Shown: piece by piece, positions 14,613 through 27,942 of the stretch
Numbering within the stretch: position 1 is the first letter of the stretch
Layout of the letters: every line of letters starts with the position of its first letter
DNA from: Candidatus Saccharimonadota bacterium
Lineage (GTDB): Bacteria; Bacillota_I; Bacilli_A; Mycoplasmatales; Hepatoplasmataceae
DNA length: 32,000 nt
Assembly (NCBI GenBank): GCA_027925325.1
Contig: AP027133.1
Span: 510,001-542,000, forward strand
Reading direction: 5' to 3'
Notes under the pieces: generated by a model
What the model was told of the DNA's origin: nothing
What the model saw: the letters and a program-made list of their open reading frames with translations, nothing else
Databases searched by the model: none
Position numbers and translations under genes: made by a program

Positions 14613-15569
14613 TTAAACTAATTGTTGATATTCTCTTAATAATTCATCTTTTGAAGGTCGCTTCATTTCAACAATCTCAAGTAAATTTTTAACATTTAAT
14701 TTATTATTAGAAATATTTACAGCAACTCCACTTTTATTTGCAATTAACATTTTTACTGCGTAATTTGCCATACGCGCAGTCAATAATCTTTCTGCGCAAT
14801 TTGCTCTTCCCCCGCGTTGAATATGTCCTAATACCGTGATTTTTGTCTCTTGTTTTAATTCTTTTTCGATCGCTCTTGCAATTTTATTTAAATCATCATA
14901 CATTAATTCCGAAATAAGTACAATTTTAGAACGTTTTGAATCACTTTCTTTTAATCTTGTAATAATTTGCTCAATTGTTAATTTTTTTTCTGGAATTGAT
15001 AAAACCTCTGCTCCGGTGATAATCGCTGCATTTAAAGCTAAATCACCACATCCATGTCCCATAACCTCAACTAAATTAATCCGATTATGTGATTCTGATG
15101 TATCTCTTAAATTATCAATCGCATTTACAATTGTTTCAAGTGCTGTATTGAAACCGATTGTATAATCGGTTGAAGAAATATCATTATCGATCGTAGCCGG
15201 TAGACCAATCGTTTTTATTCCCATTTCTGTAAGCTTTGCAGCACCCTTATAAGTTCCATCACCACCGATACAGATAAGAGCTTCAATTCCTCTGTTTTTT
15301 AAATTAGCAACAGCTTTGTTACGGATTTTTAAATCGGCAAATTGCGGAAATCTCGCCGAATAAATCATCGTTCCGCCCTTACGATCGATGAACTTTACCT
15401 CTTCTTTTGTAATTTTGGCAAAATTATCATCATAAAGTCCTTTGTAGCCTTCAAATACAATATAAGGTTCAATTTTATTATTGATTGCAACATTTACAAT
15501 TGCTTTTAAAGCAACATTCATTCCTGGGCAATCGCCCCCCGATGTTAAAATAGCAATTTTTTTAATCAT
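14613..15569 (-). CDS. pfkA: ATP-dependent 6-phosphofructokinase (318 aa)
   Basis: MIKKIAILTSGGDCPGMN, IGGDGT, PATIDND and GHIQRGG are present. The start is set at the ATG at 15569, preceded by AAAGGA; the track ORF starts at an upstream TTG. Confidence 0.94.
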   Translation of the reverse strand: MIKKIAILTSGGDCPGMNVALKAIVNVAINNKIEPYIVFEGYKGLYDDNFAKITKEEVKFIDRKGGTMIYSARFPQFADLKIRNKAVANLKNRGIEALICIGGDGTYKGAAKLTEMGIKTIGLPATIDNDISSTDYTIGFNTALETIVNAIDNLRDTSESHNRINLVEVMGHGCGDLALNAAIITGAEVLSIPEKKLTIEQIITRLKESDSKRSKIVLISELMYDDLNKIARAIEKELKQETKITVLGHIQRGGRANCAERLLTARMANYAVKMLIANKSGVAVNISNNKLNVKNLLEIVEMKRPSKDELLREYQQLV

Positions 15570-15651
15570 TTTATTCCTTTTCAATTCAAATTGATTTTTA
15601 AATTAAAAAGAAAGCGAAAATATCCACTTTCTCTTTTAAATTAATAAATCC

Positions 15652-17408: not shown

Positions 17409-18275
17409 TTATTTTGCTTTATTTTTTGTTCCAAATAAGGTTATTTTTTCGGCAACTGTATCTTTCATATTTTTATAAGCATAAGTTCCAATAATTTTTC
17501 TAGGATCATATCCCATTCCTTTTTGGTCAAGTTTTTCTTCGATATATCTTCGAATTCCCTTTGCAAATGCCTCTTGAATCTCAGTATTTACATTAATTTT
17601 TGCTTCACCAGCTGCGATTGCTTTTGTAATTTGTTCATTAGGAATACCACTTCCTCCATGCAATACTAAAGGTAAATTAGTTGCTTTTGCATATATTTCC
17701 ATTTCTTTAAATCCTAATTTAGGTTTACCAACATAGTGACCATGAACGGAACCAAGTGAAGCAGCCAACATTGTAATTCCGGTAGCGGCGATGCTTTCAC
17801 ATTCACTTAATGAAGCGTAATTTATTCCACCGACAACACCATCTTCATTTCCACCTACAGTTCCAACTTCGGCTTCTACTGAAGCTTGGTGCTTATTAGC
17901 ATATTCAACAACTTCTTTTGTTTTTAAAACATTTTCCTTAATATTTAATGAAGATCCATCAAACATTACAGATTTATAACCAGCATCGATCGCTTTTTTG
18001 CAATTTTCAACTGATTGCCCATGATCAAGATGCAACACAACAGGAATCGTAATTTTTAAATCCTTCATTAAACCTTCGACCATTCCGACAATCGCATGGA
18101 AACCACCCATATATTTAACCGCTCCTTCAGATGTTCCTAAAATTACAGGAGCTTTCATTTCTTGGCAAGTTTCTAGTACGGCTTTTGTTCATTCTAAATT
18201 ATTAATATTATATTGACCGACAGCATATTTGCCTTTTTTTGCATCATTTAAAATCTTTTTTGCATTTGATAACAT
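17409..18275 (-). CDS. fba: Class II fructose-bisphosphate aldolase (288 aa)
   Basis: The N-terminus extends through one TGA to the ATG at 18275 ([29 protein letters not shown]...). LHLDHG, SVHG and VLHGGSG motifs are present. Confidence 0.92.
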
Positions 18276-20445: not shown

Positions 20446-21612
20446 CTAAATTTTTAAACCTATTTTTTCTGTCTTTAATTGACTATAATCATTTACTTTA
20501 ATATTTATTACCGTTGAAACCTCTCGTAATTTTTTAATTTTATTATTACTAAATAAAATTAATGCTTCCTTACTATAATTACTTTCTTGATAAAAATGAA
20601 ATGAAGTTTTTAAATCAATCTCTTCTCAAGTAAATCCTTTTTGCTCTTTTTTCATCATCTTTAATTCATCCATTTTACAAATTGTCGCCCTTTTTTGATA
20701 AATCAAATGATTTGCAATTTTAATGATAATTTGATCTTTTTCATTCAGTGATTTCTTAATAAAATTTCAAATAGTATTATCATCCAAATTAAGAAATTGT
20801 TCAATTGTCAATTCTTGCTCTTTAAAAAGAGGAATGAATTGTTGGTATTCATGAATTAATTGCTTATTTTTAAATAAATATTTTAAGCGTTTAAAAAATC
20901 AGAGAAAAAGAATTGAACAAGCGACATTTTTAGGACTATTATAGACAACTTTATTCATATGATAACGACCAAGAATCATCGCTTCAATCGTTGAAATTGC
21001 TTTTTGTGTAAATGCCAATTTATTATTAATTATTTTTGCATTACGTATCAATCAATTATATTCAATTTTGCCATAATCTAAACCAACATGATATGAATCT
21101 CTTAGTAAATAATCCAAACGATCAACATCAATTTCTGATGATATCAGTTGATTTACTCACTCCAAATGATATTTACCTTGTAAAATTTGACTAATCGCTA
21201 TTATTAACTGAGGATCTTTCTTATTTAAAATTTGATTAATTTCAGTATTTTGATCATTAATGATTTTAAGTGAATATTGCTCATGATTTATTGTTGAAAT
21301 TTGTTCAAAAAGATGCGAAAAAGGTCCATGTCCAAGATCATGCAAAAGAGCAGAAGCAAGAGTTGCCTGATAAGTTAATTTATCAATTTCTACTTTATCT
21401 TCAATAAATTTTTTTAAAAATTTTTTTGCTAATTGATAAGCGCCCAAGCTATGACTTAAACGATTATGTGTTGCCCCTGGAAATTGGAAGCTTGTTAATC
21501 CTAATTGATTTATTCTAGCTAATCTTTTAAATTCTTTTGCATTAAATAATTCGATTAAAAAATCTTCTTCAAAAGTAATATTTTTTAAAATATTATCAGT
21601 TATATATCTCAT
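20446..21612 (-). CDS. HD-domain dNTP triphosphohydrolase-like protein (388 aa)
   Basis: Motifs seen: [19 protein letters not shown] and [17 protein letters not shown] translated the whole frame through the TGAs to TAG at 20446-20448. Its start overlaps the gltX stop by 4 nt. Confidence 0.8.
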
Positions 21613-23811: not shown

Positions 23812-23839
23812 AAAGGGTATCGTAAGATACCCTTTTTTT
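23812..23839. terminator. Hairpin terminator immediately after the ROK kinase gene
   Basis: AAAGGGTATC-GTAA-GATACCCTTT is followed by a T run. It starts 9 nt past the stop at 23844. Confidence 0.55.
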
Positions 23840-23843
23840 AATA

Positions 23844-24842
23844 TTATTTATTATTTTTCTGATCATATAAAAGCATTGCTGAATAAGATGCTCCATATAA
23901 TCCAGCATCATTTCCAACATTACATAATTCAATTCTTGTTGTTTCTCTTATAAAATCATGTGTAAATCTTTGATAAACAGGTTCAAGATATTTAAGTAAT
24001 GTTTCATTATCATGGGCTAATCCACCCCCTAGAATGATTGTTTCAGGATTTAGAATCATTGCAATAGTTGCTAATTCTCTTCCACCATATTCAGCAAAAT
24101 CTTTTGCTGCCATGATTGCTAATTGATCATTTTTGCGGACAGCATCTCAAATATTTTTTCCATTTATCTCTTTATTATCTAAAATTGATTTTATATTAGG
24201 ATTTTTTTGTTTTAATTGATTATAAATATTTATAAGACCGGTTGCAGAAAAAGTCGGTTCTGCACACTCTGGTAATCCACATGTACATTGAAATCTTGTT
24301 TTAAATCCTTGTAAAGGAATATGACCGACCTCACCTGCAGTTCCCCCTGAGCCTTGATATAATTTACCATTTATTACGATACCGGCTCCCAATCCTGTTC
24401 CTAGAGTAAGAAAGACAAAATTATCAACATCACGTGCTTTTCCAATAAATTTTTCCCCAAGTGCTGCCATATCACAATCATTATGTACGGCAATTGGAAA
24501 ATCACCTCATCACTTTGCTAGATCTCTTTTTACATCATAGTTTTTTCAACCGATATTACCAGAAAATTTTACAACTCCATCAAGAGAGGGAAAACCAGGA
24601 ATCCCAATTCCCATTGCAATTGCTTTTTTCCCTTCATATTTTGAATCTCTTAATTTATTTTTAAATTCCTTTGTAATTTCTTCAGGGATATATTTTCCTT
24701 TTTGATTTAAATTAGTATTAATTTTTCAGCGATCAAGCATTAATCCTGCTCGTGTAATTATTGCTAATTTAATAAAAGTTCCACCGATATCAACCGCAAG
24801 AAAAAGATCTTTTTTATTATATTTATCTTTTATATTAATCAT
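23844..24842 (-). CDS. ROK-family sugar kinase (glucokinase-like, 332 aa)
   Basis: Motifs seen: LAVDIGGTFIK (ATPase phosphate-1), LTLGTGLGAGIV, GEVGH and the CxCGxxxC zinc motif (CTCGLPEC). Fragments are joined through TGA codons. Confidence 0.85.
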
Positions 24843-24858
24843 GATACTTTCCTTTTTC

Positions 24859-25329
24859 TCAATCTGCTAATTCCTTTGCAAAAGAAACTTCTTTATTCTC
24901 TTTTACAATACCATCTAAAAAATCAACCAATTTTTGATCACCTGTAAACTTTTGATTAATAAAAATATCGACCGCTTCTTCCATAATTCCAAGTCCCGTA
25001 ATTCTTCCACCAAAAGCAATAATATTTGCATTATATTGTTTTCGTGCGATTTTTGCCGCTGATAAATCTCTTATTAATGCGACTCGTGCTCCTTTTATTT
25101 TTTGAGCAGAATTTGAAATTCCCACACCTGTTCCACAGATTGCAATTCCAAAATCACATTTTTTATGGACAACAGCTTCAGCAATCTTTTGCCCAAAAAT
25201 CGGATAATGAGTTCTAACAAAATCATAGGTACCGACATCAAGAATTTGATGACCATTTTGGATTAGTGCTTCTTTTAGTTTATCTTTCACATCGGTTACG
25301 ATATGATCACAACCTATTGCAATTTTCAT
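24859..25329 (-). CDS. lacB: Galactose-6-phosphate isomerase subunit LacB-like (RpiB/LacA/LacB family, 156 aa)
   Basis: MKIAIGCDHIVTD...GTYDFVRTHYPIFGQK...ICGTGVGISN closely follows my recollection of Gram-positive LacB (MKIAIGCDHIVTD..GTYD..RTHYPIFGKK). Confidence 0.82.
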   Translation of the reverse strand: MKIAIGCDHIVTDVKDKLKEALIQNGHQILDVGTYDFVRTHYPIFGQKIAEAVVHKKCDFGIAICGTGVGISNSAQKIKGARVALIRDLSAAKIARKQYNANIIAFGGRITGLGIMEEAVDIFINQKFTGDQKLVDFLDGIVKENKEVSFAKELAD

Positions 25330-25340
25330 CTTTTTCTCCT

Positions 25341-25775
25341 TTATCCTAATTTATTTAACATATCTATTCTAATCATATGTCTACCAGCAGCAAATTTAGT
25401 TTCAAAAAATAGCTTTATAATTTCTTTTGCAATAAAGATATTAGTAATATTAGCCCCTAAACTAATTCCGATCGCATTATTGTGTTCTCTTGTCATGTGT
25501 GCTGAATGTTCATCTGCACATTGTGCAACAATCATCTTTTTTACTTTAGCAGCAGCACAAAAACCAAGTCCCCCGGATTCATCAATAGTAATTAAGCGAT
25601 CCCCTTTTACATTACTTATTATTTGTTTGCTAACATTTACAATTTCTTTTACATAATCAAGATCATTATCTTTGATAATAAAATCAATATCTTGCTTGAA
25701 ATTATTCTTAATATAATTACTTATATTATTTGCATATTCTTTAAAATCTTTTTTGGCAATAATAAAAATTTTCAT
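25341..25775 (-). CDS. lacA: Galactose-6-phosphate isomerase subunit LacA-like (144 aa)
   Basis: The C-terminus ...DEHSAHMTREHNNA...AAGRHMIRIDMLNKLG parallels LacA ...DERSGYMTRGHNN...GGRHQIRVDMLNKM. It lies 11 nt upstream of lacB. Confidence 0.78.
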   Translation of the reverse strand: MKIFIIAKKDFKEYANNISNYIKNNFKQDIDFIIKDNDLDYVKEIVNVSKQIISNVKGDRLITIDESGGLGFCAAAKVKKMIVAQCADEHSAHMTREHNNAIGISLGANITNIFIAKEIIKLFFETKFAAGRHMIRIDMLNKLG

Positions 25776-25787
25776 TATTTTTCCTTA

Positions 25788-26852
25788 TTAGGCTATTTTT
25801 TTTCTAGCATTTTTTGCTGATTTAATATTCATTGTGAATCAATAGTATAATGGTAATAAATTTGAAACAAAGAGTAAAATACTTTGAATTGAAAGAATTA
25901 AATTACCAACTTGAAAGTAAACAACCATTTGTGCAAACATCGCAACTTCAAATGAAATTCATGCTCAATATGTTTTTCTTGTAAGTAAGATTAATCCTGA
26001 TACTTGAAAAATTCCCACAACCATATCTCAGTAAGGAGCAGTATCATAAATAACTCCCGATTCAACAACATAAGAATAAGCATAGCCATAAGAACCGGTG
26101 TCAATAATTTGAGCAGTTTGATCATCAATTGTAGGATCAGTATCACTAAAACCATAAAAGGTTTTATCATCAGTAAAGATTGCTGGTGTAATTAAAAGTA
26201 AAGATGCAACAACAAAAACTATCGCAACTGCTCCAACAATTAATAATCATTTTGTGTTAAGTTGTGAAAGATATGGATCTACATCTTCTTTTTTATCTTG
26301 TTTGTCTCATGCAAAATAACGTTGTTGACCTAAAACAAGACCAATAATCTGTGAAATTGCAATTCATCAAGCTCCATAAATGATATCTATAAATAGAAAT
26401 GCCCCCATCGAAATCTGATTTCACCAAATAAATCTTTTTGAAAATTTAATCAAAAAGATATTGGCCATAAATTGACAGACCGATGCAACTAATGATAAAG
26501 CTAATAGAAATCAAGAAATAATATAAAAAGGAGCGGTTTTTGAAACTCCATCTTCTGTTACTATTCCATATTTTCCATTAATTGTTTTCCCAAATGCAGA
26601 TTGATTACTAGCATCATATCCAAGACCATACAAAATAATATTAATAATTGAAATCATTAACAAAATCACAATAAATATGATCATTGTATACAATGTAAAA
26701 TCCTCTTGTGTTCATTTTTTTGGATGAAAAAACCTTGAAAAATCAACAAAAGAATCACGGTGTTCAACCGATTTGAGATCTACATTATTAGCTTTCTTAA
26801 TTTCTGTTTTTTCTTTCCCCTTACTTTCTAGGGGGGGGGATGAATTATTCAT
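25788..26852 (-). CDS. PnuC-family (nicotinamide riboside transporter-like) membrane protein, copy 1 (354 aa)
   Basis: Hand translation with many TGA-Trp codons shows a two-fold internal pattern. The C-terminal half WDMVVGIFQVSGLILLTRKTYWAWISFEV...LYYW aligns by eye with E. coli PnuC WDSCMMVLSIVAMILMTRKYVENWLLWVI...SRMW. There are multiple hydrophobic helices. Confidence 0.62.
26831..26839. repeat. Homopolymeric G9 (C9 on the coding strand) tract inside codons 5-8 of PnuC-like copy 1
   Basis: It is read directly from ...ttactttcta ggggggggga tgaatt.... The coding strand is ATG AAT AAT TCA TCC CCC CCC CTA. Confidence 0.95.
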
Positions 26853-27042
26853 AATAAATTCTTATAATCCTTCTCTTTTTAGTTATAGAATTTAATTAAA
26901 TATTTAATTTTAAAATTCCCTTTTATATAACGACCATTTTAATCTTTACAAACAAATGATAATACTTTAAAAATAAAAATCTTTTGAAAATAAAAGTTGT
27001 ATATACAAATAATAAGCTAATTCAATAATACTTATTTAAAGG

Positions 27043-27051
27043 TGGTATAAT
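27043..27051 (+). promoter_or_regulatory. Extended -10 promoter element for the aldolase gene
   Basis: TGGTATAAT (TGnTATAAT) lies 34 nt upstream of the ATG at 27085. The SD sequence GAAGGAG lies at 27073-27079. Confidence 0.45.
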
Positions 27052-27084
27052 TTTTTAATAATTATATTTTTAGAAGGAGCAGAT

Positions 27085-27942
27085 ATGCCTCTTGTAGGTG
27101 GAAAAATCTTATTAAAAGACGCAATAAAGAAACAATATGCAATTCCTGCCTTTGGAATTGTTAATTTAGAAGGAGCAAAAGCAGCAATCGAAGCTGCTGA
27201 GGAATTAAATGCACCTATAATTTTACAAACAACAGAGGGAGGAATAAATTATGCCGGCCATGAAGAATTAGCAGCAATTGCGATTGCTTGTGCCAAAAAA
27301 GCAAAAGTTCCTGTTGCTATTCATTTAGATCATGGTCGTGATATTAAATATCATAAAAAATCACTCGAACTTGGTTATACTTCATTAATGATTGATGGTT
27401 CAGTATTATCATTAAATGAAAATATTAAAATCACAAATCAGGTCAAAAAACTAATTAAAAATGATAATATCACGCTCGAAGCAGAACTTGGAATAATCGG
27501 CGGAAAAGAAGATGATATCGAAGAAGAAGCTGATAATTTTACTAAAGTTGAAGATGCAGTTAAATTTATAGATAACACTGATATCGATATGCTTGCAATC
27601 GCTTGTGGAACTAGTCATGGTTTTTATCATAAAGAACCTAAAATTAATTTTGCTTTAATTAAAGAAATTACAACAAAAACAAAAAAACCACTTGTATTGC
27701 ACGGAGGAACGGATGTTCCTTTAGAACAAATTACAAAAGCTGTAGAGGCAGGAATTAGAAAAGCTAATTTTGATAGCGAACTTAAAAAAGCCATTATTTG
27801 TGGAATTTTGGAATACATGTATCAAAATCCTGATGCTTTTGATTTAAGAAAAATTTTTCGTAAGGGAATAGATCAAGCAAAGGAAGTTGCAAAAAGCAAA
27901 ATAAAAGCTGTTGGTGCGGTTAACAAAAATTGATTAAAATAA
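27085..27942 (+). CDS. Class II ketose-bisphosphate aldolase, tagatose/fructose-bisphosphate aldolase family (GatY/KbaY-like, 285 aa)
   Basis: Motifs seen: AIPAFGIVNLE, IHLDHG, GTSHG and VLHGGTD. The TGA at 27931 is read as Trp, and the true TAA is at 27940-27942. It is a clearly diverged paralog of fba at 17409-18275. Confidence 0.85.

Follow-up and report, generated by a model that had tools for sequence, protein, structure and literature searches.

A candidate PTS-independent tagatose-6-phosphate module with a Pnu-fold membrane protein in Candidatus Hepatoplasma

A window of 32,000 nucleotides (positions 510001-542000, ~25% GC) in the genome of an uncultured Candidatus Hepatoplasma of terrestrial isopods, a single contig of 606,194 bp with 24.7% GC and 96.5% completeness, was found to carry five genes which we interpret as a kinase-fed tagatose-6-phosphate module that is independent of a phosphotransferase system (PTS). 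The genes encode a divergent membrane protein of the Pnu (PnuC) fold (P0001), the LacA and LacB subunits of a galactose-6-phosphate isomerase, a sugar kinase of the ROK family, and a second class II ketose-bisphosphate aldolase. The substrate would be a galactose-type hexose, most likely D-galactose, and we place the probability of this interpretation at roughly 0.55. Coordinates are those of the window unless the genome is named.

In the proposed route, P0001 would admit the free sugar by facilitated diffusion, as shown for PnuT, and the co-transcribed ROK kinase would trap galactose as its 6-phosphate. Galactose 6-phosphate (Gal6P) would be isomerized by LacAB to tagatose 6-phosphate (Tag6P), which the housekeeping PfkA would phosphorylate to tagatose 1,6-bisphosphate; the divergent class II aldolase would then cleave the latter to dihydroxyacetone phosphate (DHAP) and glyceraldehyde 3-phosphate (GAP). 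A non-PTS route of this kind, running from permease to ROK kinase, LacAB, PfkA and class II aldolase, had been outlined in the initial annotation of the window, and it was supported by every test run.

Gene layout and the predicted enzymes

The genes of the window were read with genetic code 4 (TGA = Trp); open reading frames based on table 11 were discarded, as they broke the genes into fragments, while table 4 yielded long, closely packed genes. Under this code P0001 (25788-26852, minus strand, 354 aa, eight transmembrane helices, 11 TGA-encoded Trp residues) is the first gene of an operon that continues with LacA (25341-25775, minus strand, 144 aa), LacB (24835-25329, minus strand, 164 aa) and the ROK kinase (23844-24842, minus strand, 332 aa). 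The aldolase (27085-27942, plus strand, 285 aa) is divergent from it across 232 nt between the start codons (26853-27084), a region presumed to hold the promoters of both. This arrangement agrees with the initial annotation, and Pfam and NCBIfam concurred in the identity of the ROK, LacB, LacA and aldolase genes; the gaps within the operon, earlier given as 11-16 nt, were measured at -8, 11 and 12 nt. A hairpin terminator with a 10-bp stem, 4 GC pairs and a T-run lies directly after the ROK stop codon (23812-23835, minus strand); six terminator-like sites were seen, compared to 1.4 expected in shuffled sequences. A promoter scan of the divergent region remained at chance level in this AT-rich DNA, and a search of the same region for a convincing operator revealed none.

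Both isomerase subunits are closer to the galactose-6-phosphate isomerase models than to those of the ribose-phosphate isomerase RpiB. LacB scored 203.5 bits against NF006381 and 120-129 bits against the rpiB models, and LacA scored 113.7 bits against NF006380 and 67-73 bits against the rpiB models, their best matches in the PDB being 4LFK_B and 4LFK_A, respectively. Neither reached its NCBIfam equivalog cut-off (234 for LacB and 164 for LacA), in sequences that are divergent, AT-rich and mollicute. The residues reported to contact Tag6P in the Lactobacillus rhamnosus enzyme (PMC3755991) are nevertheless all in place: by L. rhamnosus equivalents, LacA keeps M92, H96 and N97 (in HMTREHN) and R130, H131 and R134 (in GRHMIR), and LacB keeps D8, H9, I10, R39, Y42, C65, T67, G70 and the C-terminal W..G.YHD. 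The only differences, I69V and T73N, are peripheral. LacB R39 and the C-terminal Asp at the helix end, which provide space for a hexose phosphate, are the features that set this pocket apart from that of RpiB.

The ROK kinase, the only such gene in the genome, scored 196.5 bits against PF00480 and 228.8 bits against the glucokinase model TIGR00744 (cut-off 260.35). Its best match among solved structures is the Enterococcus faecalis glucokinase 2QM1 (197 bits), with which the Zn-binding Cys motif CxCGxxxC and the EVGH motif are aligned.

As the initial annotation had stated, the class II aldolase (PF01116, 295.8 bits) is distinct from the housekeeping fba, to which it is only 37% identical. The latter (17409-18275, minus strand) passed the fructose-1,6-bisphosphate (FBP) aldolase model TIGR01859 with 361.2 bits (cut-off 343) and is best matched in the PDB by the Staphylococcus aureus Fba 4TO8 (328 bits). 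The module aldolase failed the FBP-aldolase equivalog (289.6 bits versus 343), scored 247 against TIGR01858 (cut-off 443), and passed only the ketose-bisphosphate subfamily model; its best PDB matches are 8Q58, AgaY (1GVF) and KbaY (8Q57). In a pairwise BLAST, Escherichia coli GatY matched the housekeeping Fba better than it did the module enzyme, contrary to the PDB ranking. A maximum-likelihood tree placed the aldolases of the module in a clade of their own (support 100/99), far from the housekeeping Fba and outside E. coli GatY/KbaY, with the aldolases adjacent to LacAB in Spiroplasma and Williamsoniiplasma as a weakly supported sister group. The nearest relatives outside the family (49% identity) reside in two contexts: an aldolase-EIIA-EIIB-EIIC(Gat)-dehydrogenase operon with the galactitol layout, and an operon in which a deacetylase accompanies a GH35 beta-galactosidase and an AgaS-like SIS protein. 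The galactitol-type and GH35/AgaS-like routes both end in Tag6P and tagatose 1,6-bisphosphate.

PfkA was confirmed at 14613-15584 (minus strand; NF002872, 369.6 bits), the initial annotation having placed it at 14613-15569. It sits in a pyk-pfkA-eno-fba cluster. With no PfkB or LacC gene in the genome, it is the only candidate for the conversion of Tag6P to tagatose 1,6-bisphosphate.

The Pnu-type membrane proteins

The assignment of P0001 to PnuC by a direct hidden Markov model comparison alone failed: it scored 11.5 bits against PF04973, for which the cut-off is 27.3, and its paralog P0002 (27953-28915, minus strand, 320 aa, 49% identical to P0001 and tail-to-tail with the aldolase) scored 22 bits against TIGR01528 (cut-off 42.45). 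Fold comparison and transitive homology were needed. The P0001 ortholog of Candidatus Tyloplasma litorale (P0012, 46% identical) passes PF04973 with 36.1 bits, as do three remote relatives (P0014-P0016) with 27.6-31.1 bits. An AlphaFold (AF2) model of P0001, with a mean predicted local distance difference test (pLDDT) value of 68, shows helices arranged 1+3+1+3 and matches the PnuC structure 4QTN with Z 19.7 and a root-mean-square deviation of 3.9 Å over 220/235 residues (VIA; next match Z 8.0), and with probability 1.0 and a target TM score of 0.65 in Foldseek. A profile of 12 P0001 homologs had no match among the PDB sequences. Since the Tyloplasma ortholog passes the Pfam cut-off and the model matches 4QTN, membership of P0001 in the Pnu fold family is confirmed at the level of the predicted fold, and the PnuC-like label of the initial annotation is upheld in spite of the low direct scores.

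The ligand-binding motif in transmembrane helix 6 (TM6) of Pnu proteins reads WxxW(x)3D/N (PMC5749112). In the P0001 family it is [W/Y]xxW(x)3E, with W298 and E302 invariant across 12 homologs and Glu in place of D/N; a comparison with the genome's own short PnuC proteins was uninformative due to poor alignment. TM3 and TM7 keep their terminal gate Trp residues. The initial annotation had asked whether the PnuC-like proteins keep the residues that bind nicotinamide riboside (NR); the Glu stands in for one of them, and two ordinary short PnuC genes exist elsewhere in the genome, so that P0001 and P0002 come on top of these as specialised members. The P0001 family was seen in Hepatoplasmataceae alone, with 11 matches among 5.8 billion clustered proteins and 5 among 1.8 billion representatives in an exhaustive phmmer search. 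The gene contexts of the remote relatives P0014 and P0015 gave no further clue.

Transporters of the Pnu family work by facilitated diffusion and need a co-localised kinase to trap the substrate (PMC5749112). P0001 shares with the vitamin transporters of this SWEET-like fold (PnuC for NR, PnuT for thiamine, PnuX for riboflavin) the 1+3+1+3 fold, the Trp motif of TM6, the gate Trp residues and co-transcription with a kinase, as would suit facilitated diffusion with metabolic trapping. It differs from them in ~100 extra residues, present as two extracellular inserts (both conserved, ~30 and ~45 residues long, with a predicted outward orientation), in the Glu that replaces D/N, and in a Pfam score below the cut-off. 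Its partner is also of another class than the kinases of known Pnu systems, being a ROK sugar kinase within a sugar catabolic operon, whereas no sugar substrate has been described for the family.

Several further observations concern the Pnu genes. A G9/C9 homopolymer occupies codons 5-8 of P0001 (26831-26839). Only three G/C homopolymers of at least 8 nt are present in the 606-kb genome and all lie within sugar-uptake genes: a G9 in a PTS EIICB gene of the glucose/N-acetylglucosamine (Glc/GlcNAc) type (genome 5082-5090), a C8 in treB (genome 283334-283341), and the C9 of P0001. Each is a candidate switch for slipped-strand phase variation of a sugar transporter; the P0001 orthologs of H. vulgare and Tyloplasma are without such a tract. 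One of the short PnuC genes (genome 362014-362811, minus strand; PF04973 51 bits, no NCBIfam match) is separated by 19 nt from a lipoate-protein ligase gene upstream of it on that strand (genome 362831-363814), a proximity that hints at another non-NR Pnu substrate, perhaps lipoate. P0002 does not always accompany the module in sister genomes: its H. crinochetorum ortholog is located ~20 kb away from it, beside phi29 gp9-like genes.

Co-inheritance, related clusters and genome inventory

To follow the module within Hepatoplasmataceae, 14 family genomes were compared; these are kin, and the counts do not represent independent events. A P0001-type gene was found in 7 of the 14, and in each of the seven LacA, LacB, a high-scoring ROK gene and a second aldolase lay within ~6 kb; the ROK kinase shares an operon with the P0001-type gene in all of them. 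The LacA-LacB pair was never found in these genomes without a P0001-type transporter. Module-less members have one aldolase (two in one incomplete assembly) and either no ROK gene or a different, lower-scoring one; one of them has a lone RpiB of the classical type in place of LacAB. The Tyloplasma module is encoded on a single strand in the order Pnu-ROK-LacA-LacB-aldolase. Three different neighbourhoods were observed: gltX and a KAP NTPase in the present genome, restriction-modification genes in Tyloplasma, and a CRISPR-Cas9 locus in H. vulgare (AP027131.1, locus L018, 6655-6705 and 11124-14513), where the module lies between cas1/cas2 and cas9. A CRISPR array with a 66-nt period starts ~70 nt past the H. 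vulgare ROK gene, and upstream of the aldolase there is a degenerate copy of the repeat; the module seems to have been inserted into this locus. The five genes stay together amid differing neighbourhoods and therefore have the character of a single mobile cassette.

In family genome G009 (contig C1, 213839-220591), the LacA-LacB-ROK unit is duplicated in tandem on both sides of the Pnu-type gene, with one aldolase. Beside the module of the present genome, P0002 diverges from the gene of a 555-aa KAP-family P-loop NTPase (PF07693; 28991-30658, plus strand). A 388-aa HD-domain protein weakly similar to dGTP triphosphohydrolases is encoded at 20446-21612 (minus strand), overlapping the end of gltX by 13 nt.

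The same enzymatic core was recognized in other Mollicutes. Spiroplasma chinense (CP043026.1) has an aldolase beside a DeoR-LacA-LacB-ROK unit with a CUT2-type sugar ATP-binding cassette (ABC) transporter. In Williamsoniiplasma luminosum (CP024963.1) the aldolase lies beside DeoR, a PTS whose EIIC is best matched as lactose-specific, and LacA-LacB, with no ROK gene. A metagenomic code-4 contig (L038) displays the order GntR-LacA-LacB-EIIA-EIICB(lac)-GH1-aldolase, with a lactose-type PTS, an aldolase 55% identical to GatY, and again no ROK gene. LacC and LacD are absent from all three clusters. LacA-LacB near a class II aldolase without LacC or LacD is common to them and to the module, and S. 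chinense also shares the ROK kinase and non-PTS uptake; they differ in employing an ABC transporter or a lactose-type PTS together with a DeoR or GntR regulator, and in ROK kinases and aldolases of other lineages. The ROK gene tracks non-phosphorylating uptake, being present in 2/2 non-PTS cases and in 0/2 PTS cases. Because the Pnu-type protein of Hepatoplasmataceae fills the slot held elsewhere by sugar transporters, P0001 would be expected to carry the sugar of the pathway; this is the strongest argument for its role. As Pnu facilitators need a trapping kinase, the Pnu-ROK pair would reproduce the same logic.

The genome was then inventoried for other means of supplying or consuming the intermediates. 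The tblastn positive controls treC, galE, gatY and rpiB worked, while a gpmA query matched nothing and was of no use as a control. There is no match in the genome to PF00294, the PfkB family that includes LacC and FruK. The sole PF01791 match is a 225-aa protein of DeoC size (64.8 bits), and neither a class I aldolase of LacD size nor FbaB was found. Also absent from the genome are GatZ/KbaZ (tblastn with E. coli queries), GatD and AgaS; the Leloir genes GalK, GalT and GalM; AlsE, ribulose-phosphate epimerase (Rpe), transketolase and RpiA; Gnd, Zwf and UlaD/E/F; and PTS permeases of the Lac, Man/Aga and Gat types. HPr, TreC, Prs and a GalE-like gene are present, together with four PTS permeases (EIIC): two of the Glc/GlcNAc/maltose type, TreB, and one of the fructose (Fru) type. 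From this inventory it follows that no PTS plausibly delivers Gal6P, and the searches revealed no other gene in the genome able to make or use Gal6P, Tag6P or ribulose 5-phosphate (Ru5P). The initial annotation had noted that PTS components, lacC and lacD are missing from the window, which was borne out; lacC and lacD are missing from the entire genome, and no set of a Gal/Lac-type PTS with lacC and lacD exists elsewhere in it.

For the Hepatoplasma genomes of Kawato et al. 2024 (PMC10928387), PTSs for glucose, fructose, trehalose and amino sugars were described; lacAB, tagatose, PnuC and a second aldolase are not mentioned there. The same authors found a mannose-6-phosphate isomerase and no mannose transporter. 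In the present genome a PF01238 (ManA) profile search returned nothing, and tblastn gave a weak ManA-like match (E 0.004; genome 132193-133131, minus strand) adjoining an 882-aa Fru-family EIIABC gene (genome 133250-135898, plus strand), the best model of which is the mannosyl-glycerate/fructose type. Mannose may enter through this PTS, which would supply the transporter that those authors missed.

Competing explanations and significance

Several points weigh against the galactose interpretation. The ROK kinase is GlcK-like by descent, its nearest match being a Firmicute glucokinase. It is only 28% identical to the LacAB-linked ROK kinase of Spiroplasma, so that the two were recruited independently and no dedicated galactose-kinase lineage emerges. 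Since TreC frees glucose in this TreB/TreC genome, the sole ROK enzyme probably doubles as a glucokinase, and the use of galactose would therefore require a broadened specificity; no report of a ROK galactose 6-kinase was found in the literature searched, coverage of which was incomplete. Every module enzyme misses its NCBIfam equivalog cut-off, and the confidence of the P0001 model is moderate (pLDDT 68). The aldolase falls outside the GatY/KbaY clade and lacks a GatZ-type partner. In the galactitol pathway of E. coli PfkA acts as the Tag6P kinase, and it is on this precedent that the corresponding step of the module leans. LacAB also turns over allose/psicose and ribose in vitro (PMC3755991). 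Neither a kinase-fed variant of the pathway nor a sugar-carrying Pnu protein was found described, in a literature search whose incomplete coverage leaves their absence unproven.

One alternative is that the same architecture serves another aldohexose, such as D-allose, D-talose, glucose or mannose; a Pnu-ROK trap would supply LacAB, PfkA and the aldolase with a different ketohexose phosphate, for example psicose 6-phosphate, or only part of the operon would handle the sugar. The glucokinase-like ROK enzyme, with its weaker similarity to allose kinases, would suit this scenario, as would the activity of the RpiB/LacAB family on allose/psicose (PMC3755991) and the annotation of E. coli RpiB as an allose-6-phosphate isomerase. 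The ABC permease of S. chinense scores alike for ribose, allose and galactose transporters, and for mannose there is the isomerase without a transporter of Kawato et al. (PMC10928387). An allose route would, however, require an epimerase of the AlsE/Rpe family, which is absent from the genome. We know of no psicose-bisphosphate route, and glucose or mannose needs neither LacAB nor a second aldolase, yet both are always co-inherited. The PTS-fed versions of the core employ a lactose-type PTS and a GH1 phospho-beta-galactosidase, and the relatives of the aldolase reside in gat/aga-type operons. We consider this alternative clearly less likely than the galactose route.

Even less probable, in our estimate, is an accidental gathering of housekeeping genes, as in the initial annotation's suggestion that the PnuC-like proteins are ordinary vitamin or nucleoside importers. 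The ROK enzyme would then be the glucokinase for glucose derived from trehalose 6-phosphate, LacAB the only ribose-5-phosphate (R5P) isomerase, and the aldolase a spare FBP aldolase. LacA and LacB are indeed the sole genes of the RpiB family (PF02502) in a genome without RpiA; Prs is present, so that R5P matters; TreC is accompanied by one ROK gene only; and every Pnu substrate known so far is a vitamin or a riboside. A role of LacAB as an R5P isomerase alone, likewise raised in the initial annotation, was rejected on the absence of transketolase, Rpe, Gnd, Zwf and UlaD/E/F: apart from LacAB, the genome encodes no enzyme that makes or consumes Ru5P which, with HPS-like enzymes also lacking, has neither source nor sink, rendering such an isomerase a dead end. 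The hexose-phosphate pocket is intact, including LacB R39 and the C-terminal Asp, while a module-less family member has the classical single RpiB. An accidental neighbourhood is also at odds with five translationally packed genes that move and vanish jointly, with the two ordinary PnuC genes elsewhere, and with a transporter slot that is held by sugar transporters in other Mollicutes.

The galactose-type module that we favour differs from each of the known systems to which it is related. The tagatose-6-phosphate pathway is taught as PTS-fed (PMC12992531). With the Gram-positive lacABCD genes and their lacFE PTS and lacG (Lactococcus, Staphylococcus, Streptococcus), the module shares a heteromeric LacA/LacB, the pocket residues and, as proposed, the later steps of C1 phosphorylation and aldol splitting into DHAP and GAP; it would substitute a Pnu-type permease and a ROK kinase for the PTS, PfkA for LacC, and a class II aldolase for the class I LacD. 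A class II aldolase for tagatose 1,6-bisphosphate (as proposed here) and the lack of a dedicated LacC are also found in the E. coli galactitol and N-acetylgalactosamine systems (gatYZABCD, aga/kba). There, in contrast, Tag6P is derived from galactitol 1-phosphate or galactosamine 6-phosphate and not from Gal6P via LacAB, and the module has no GatZ/KbaZ and an aldolase in a clade of its own. The E. coli D-allose operon (alsBAC-alsE-alsK, rpiB) similarly combines non-PTS uptake, a ROK kinase that makes a hexose 6-phosphate and an isomerase of the RpiB/LacAB family; the module differs from it in lacking AlsE and in having a heteromeric LacAB and a linked aldolase.

The module can accordingly be viewed as a new form of an established pathway, and it may extend a familiar transporter family to another class of substrate. 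The more specific claim, that P0001 is the first sugar-carrying Pnu protein and that its ROK partner phosphorylates galactose at C6, providing a PTS-independent entry on a mobile five-gene cassette, is more tentative and stands somewhat short of an even chance. If true, it would represent a new entry into the tagatose-6-phosphate pathway and would imply a galactose 6-kinase activity within the ROK family; it would also widen the Pnu substrate range to a sugar and tie the family by function to the SWEET sugar transporters, its structural relatives. The comparison across Mollicutes also yields a rule for annotation, in which LacAB and a class II aldolase form a conserved core with interchangeable uptake, and a ROK kinase occurs only with non-phosphorylating uptake. 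For Hepatoplasma, the module would add a carbon source that does not appear in the published reconstruction (PMC10928387), probably plant- or glycan-derived galactose of the isopod gut.

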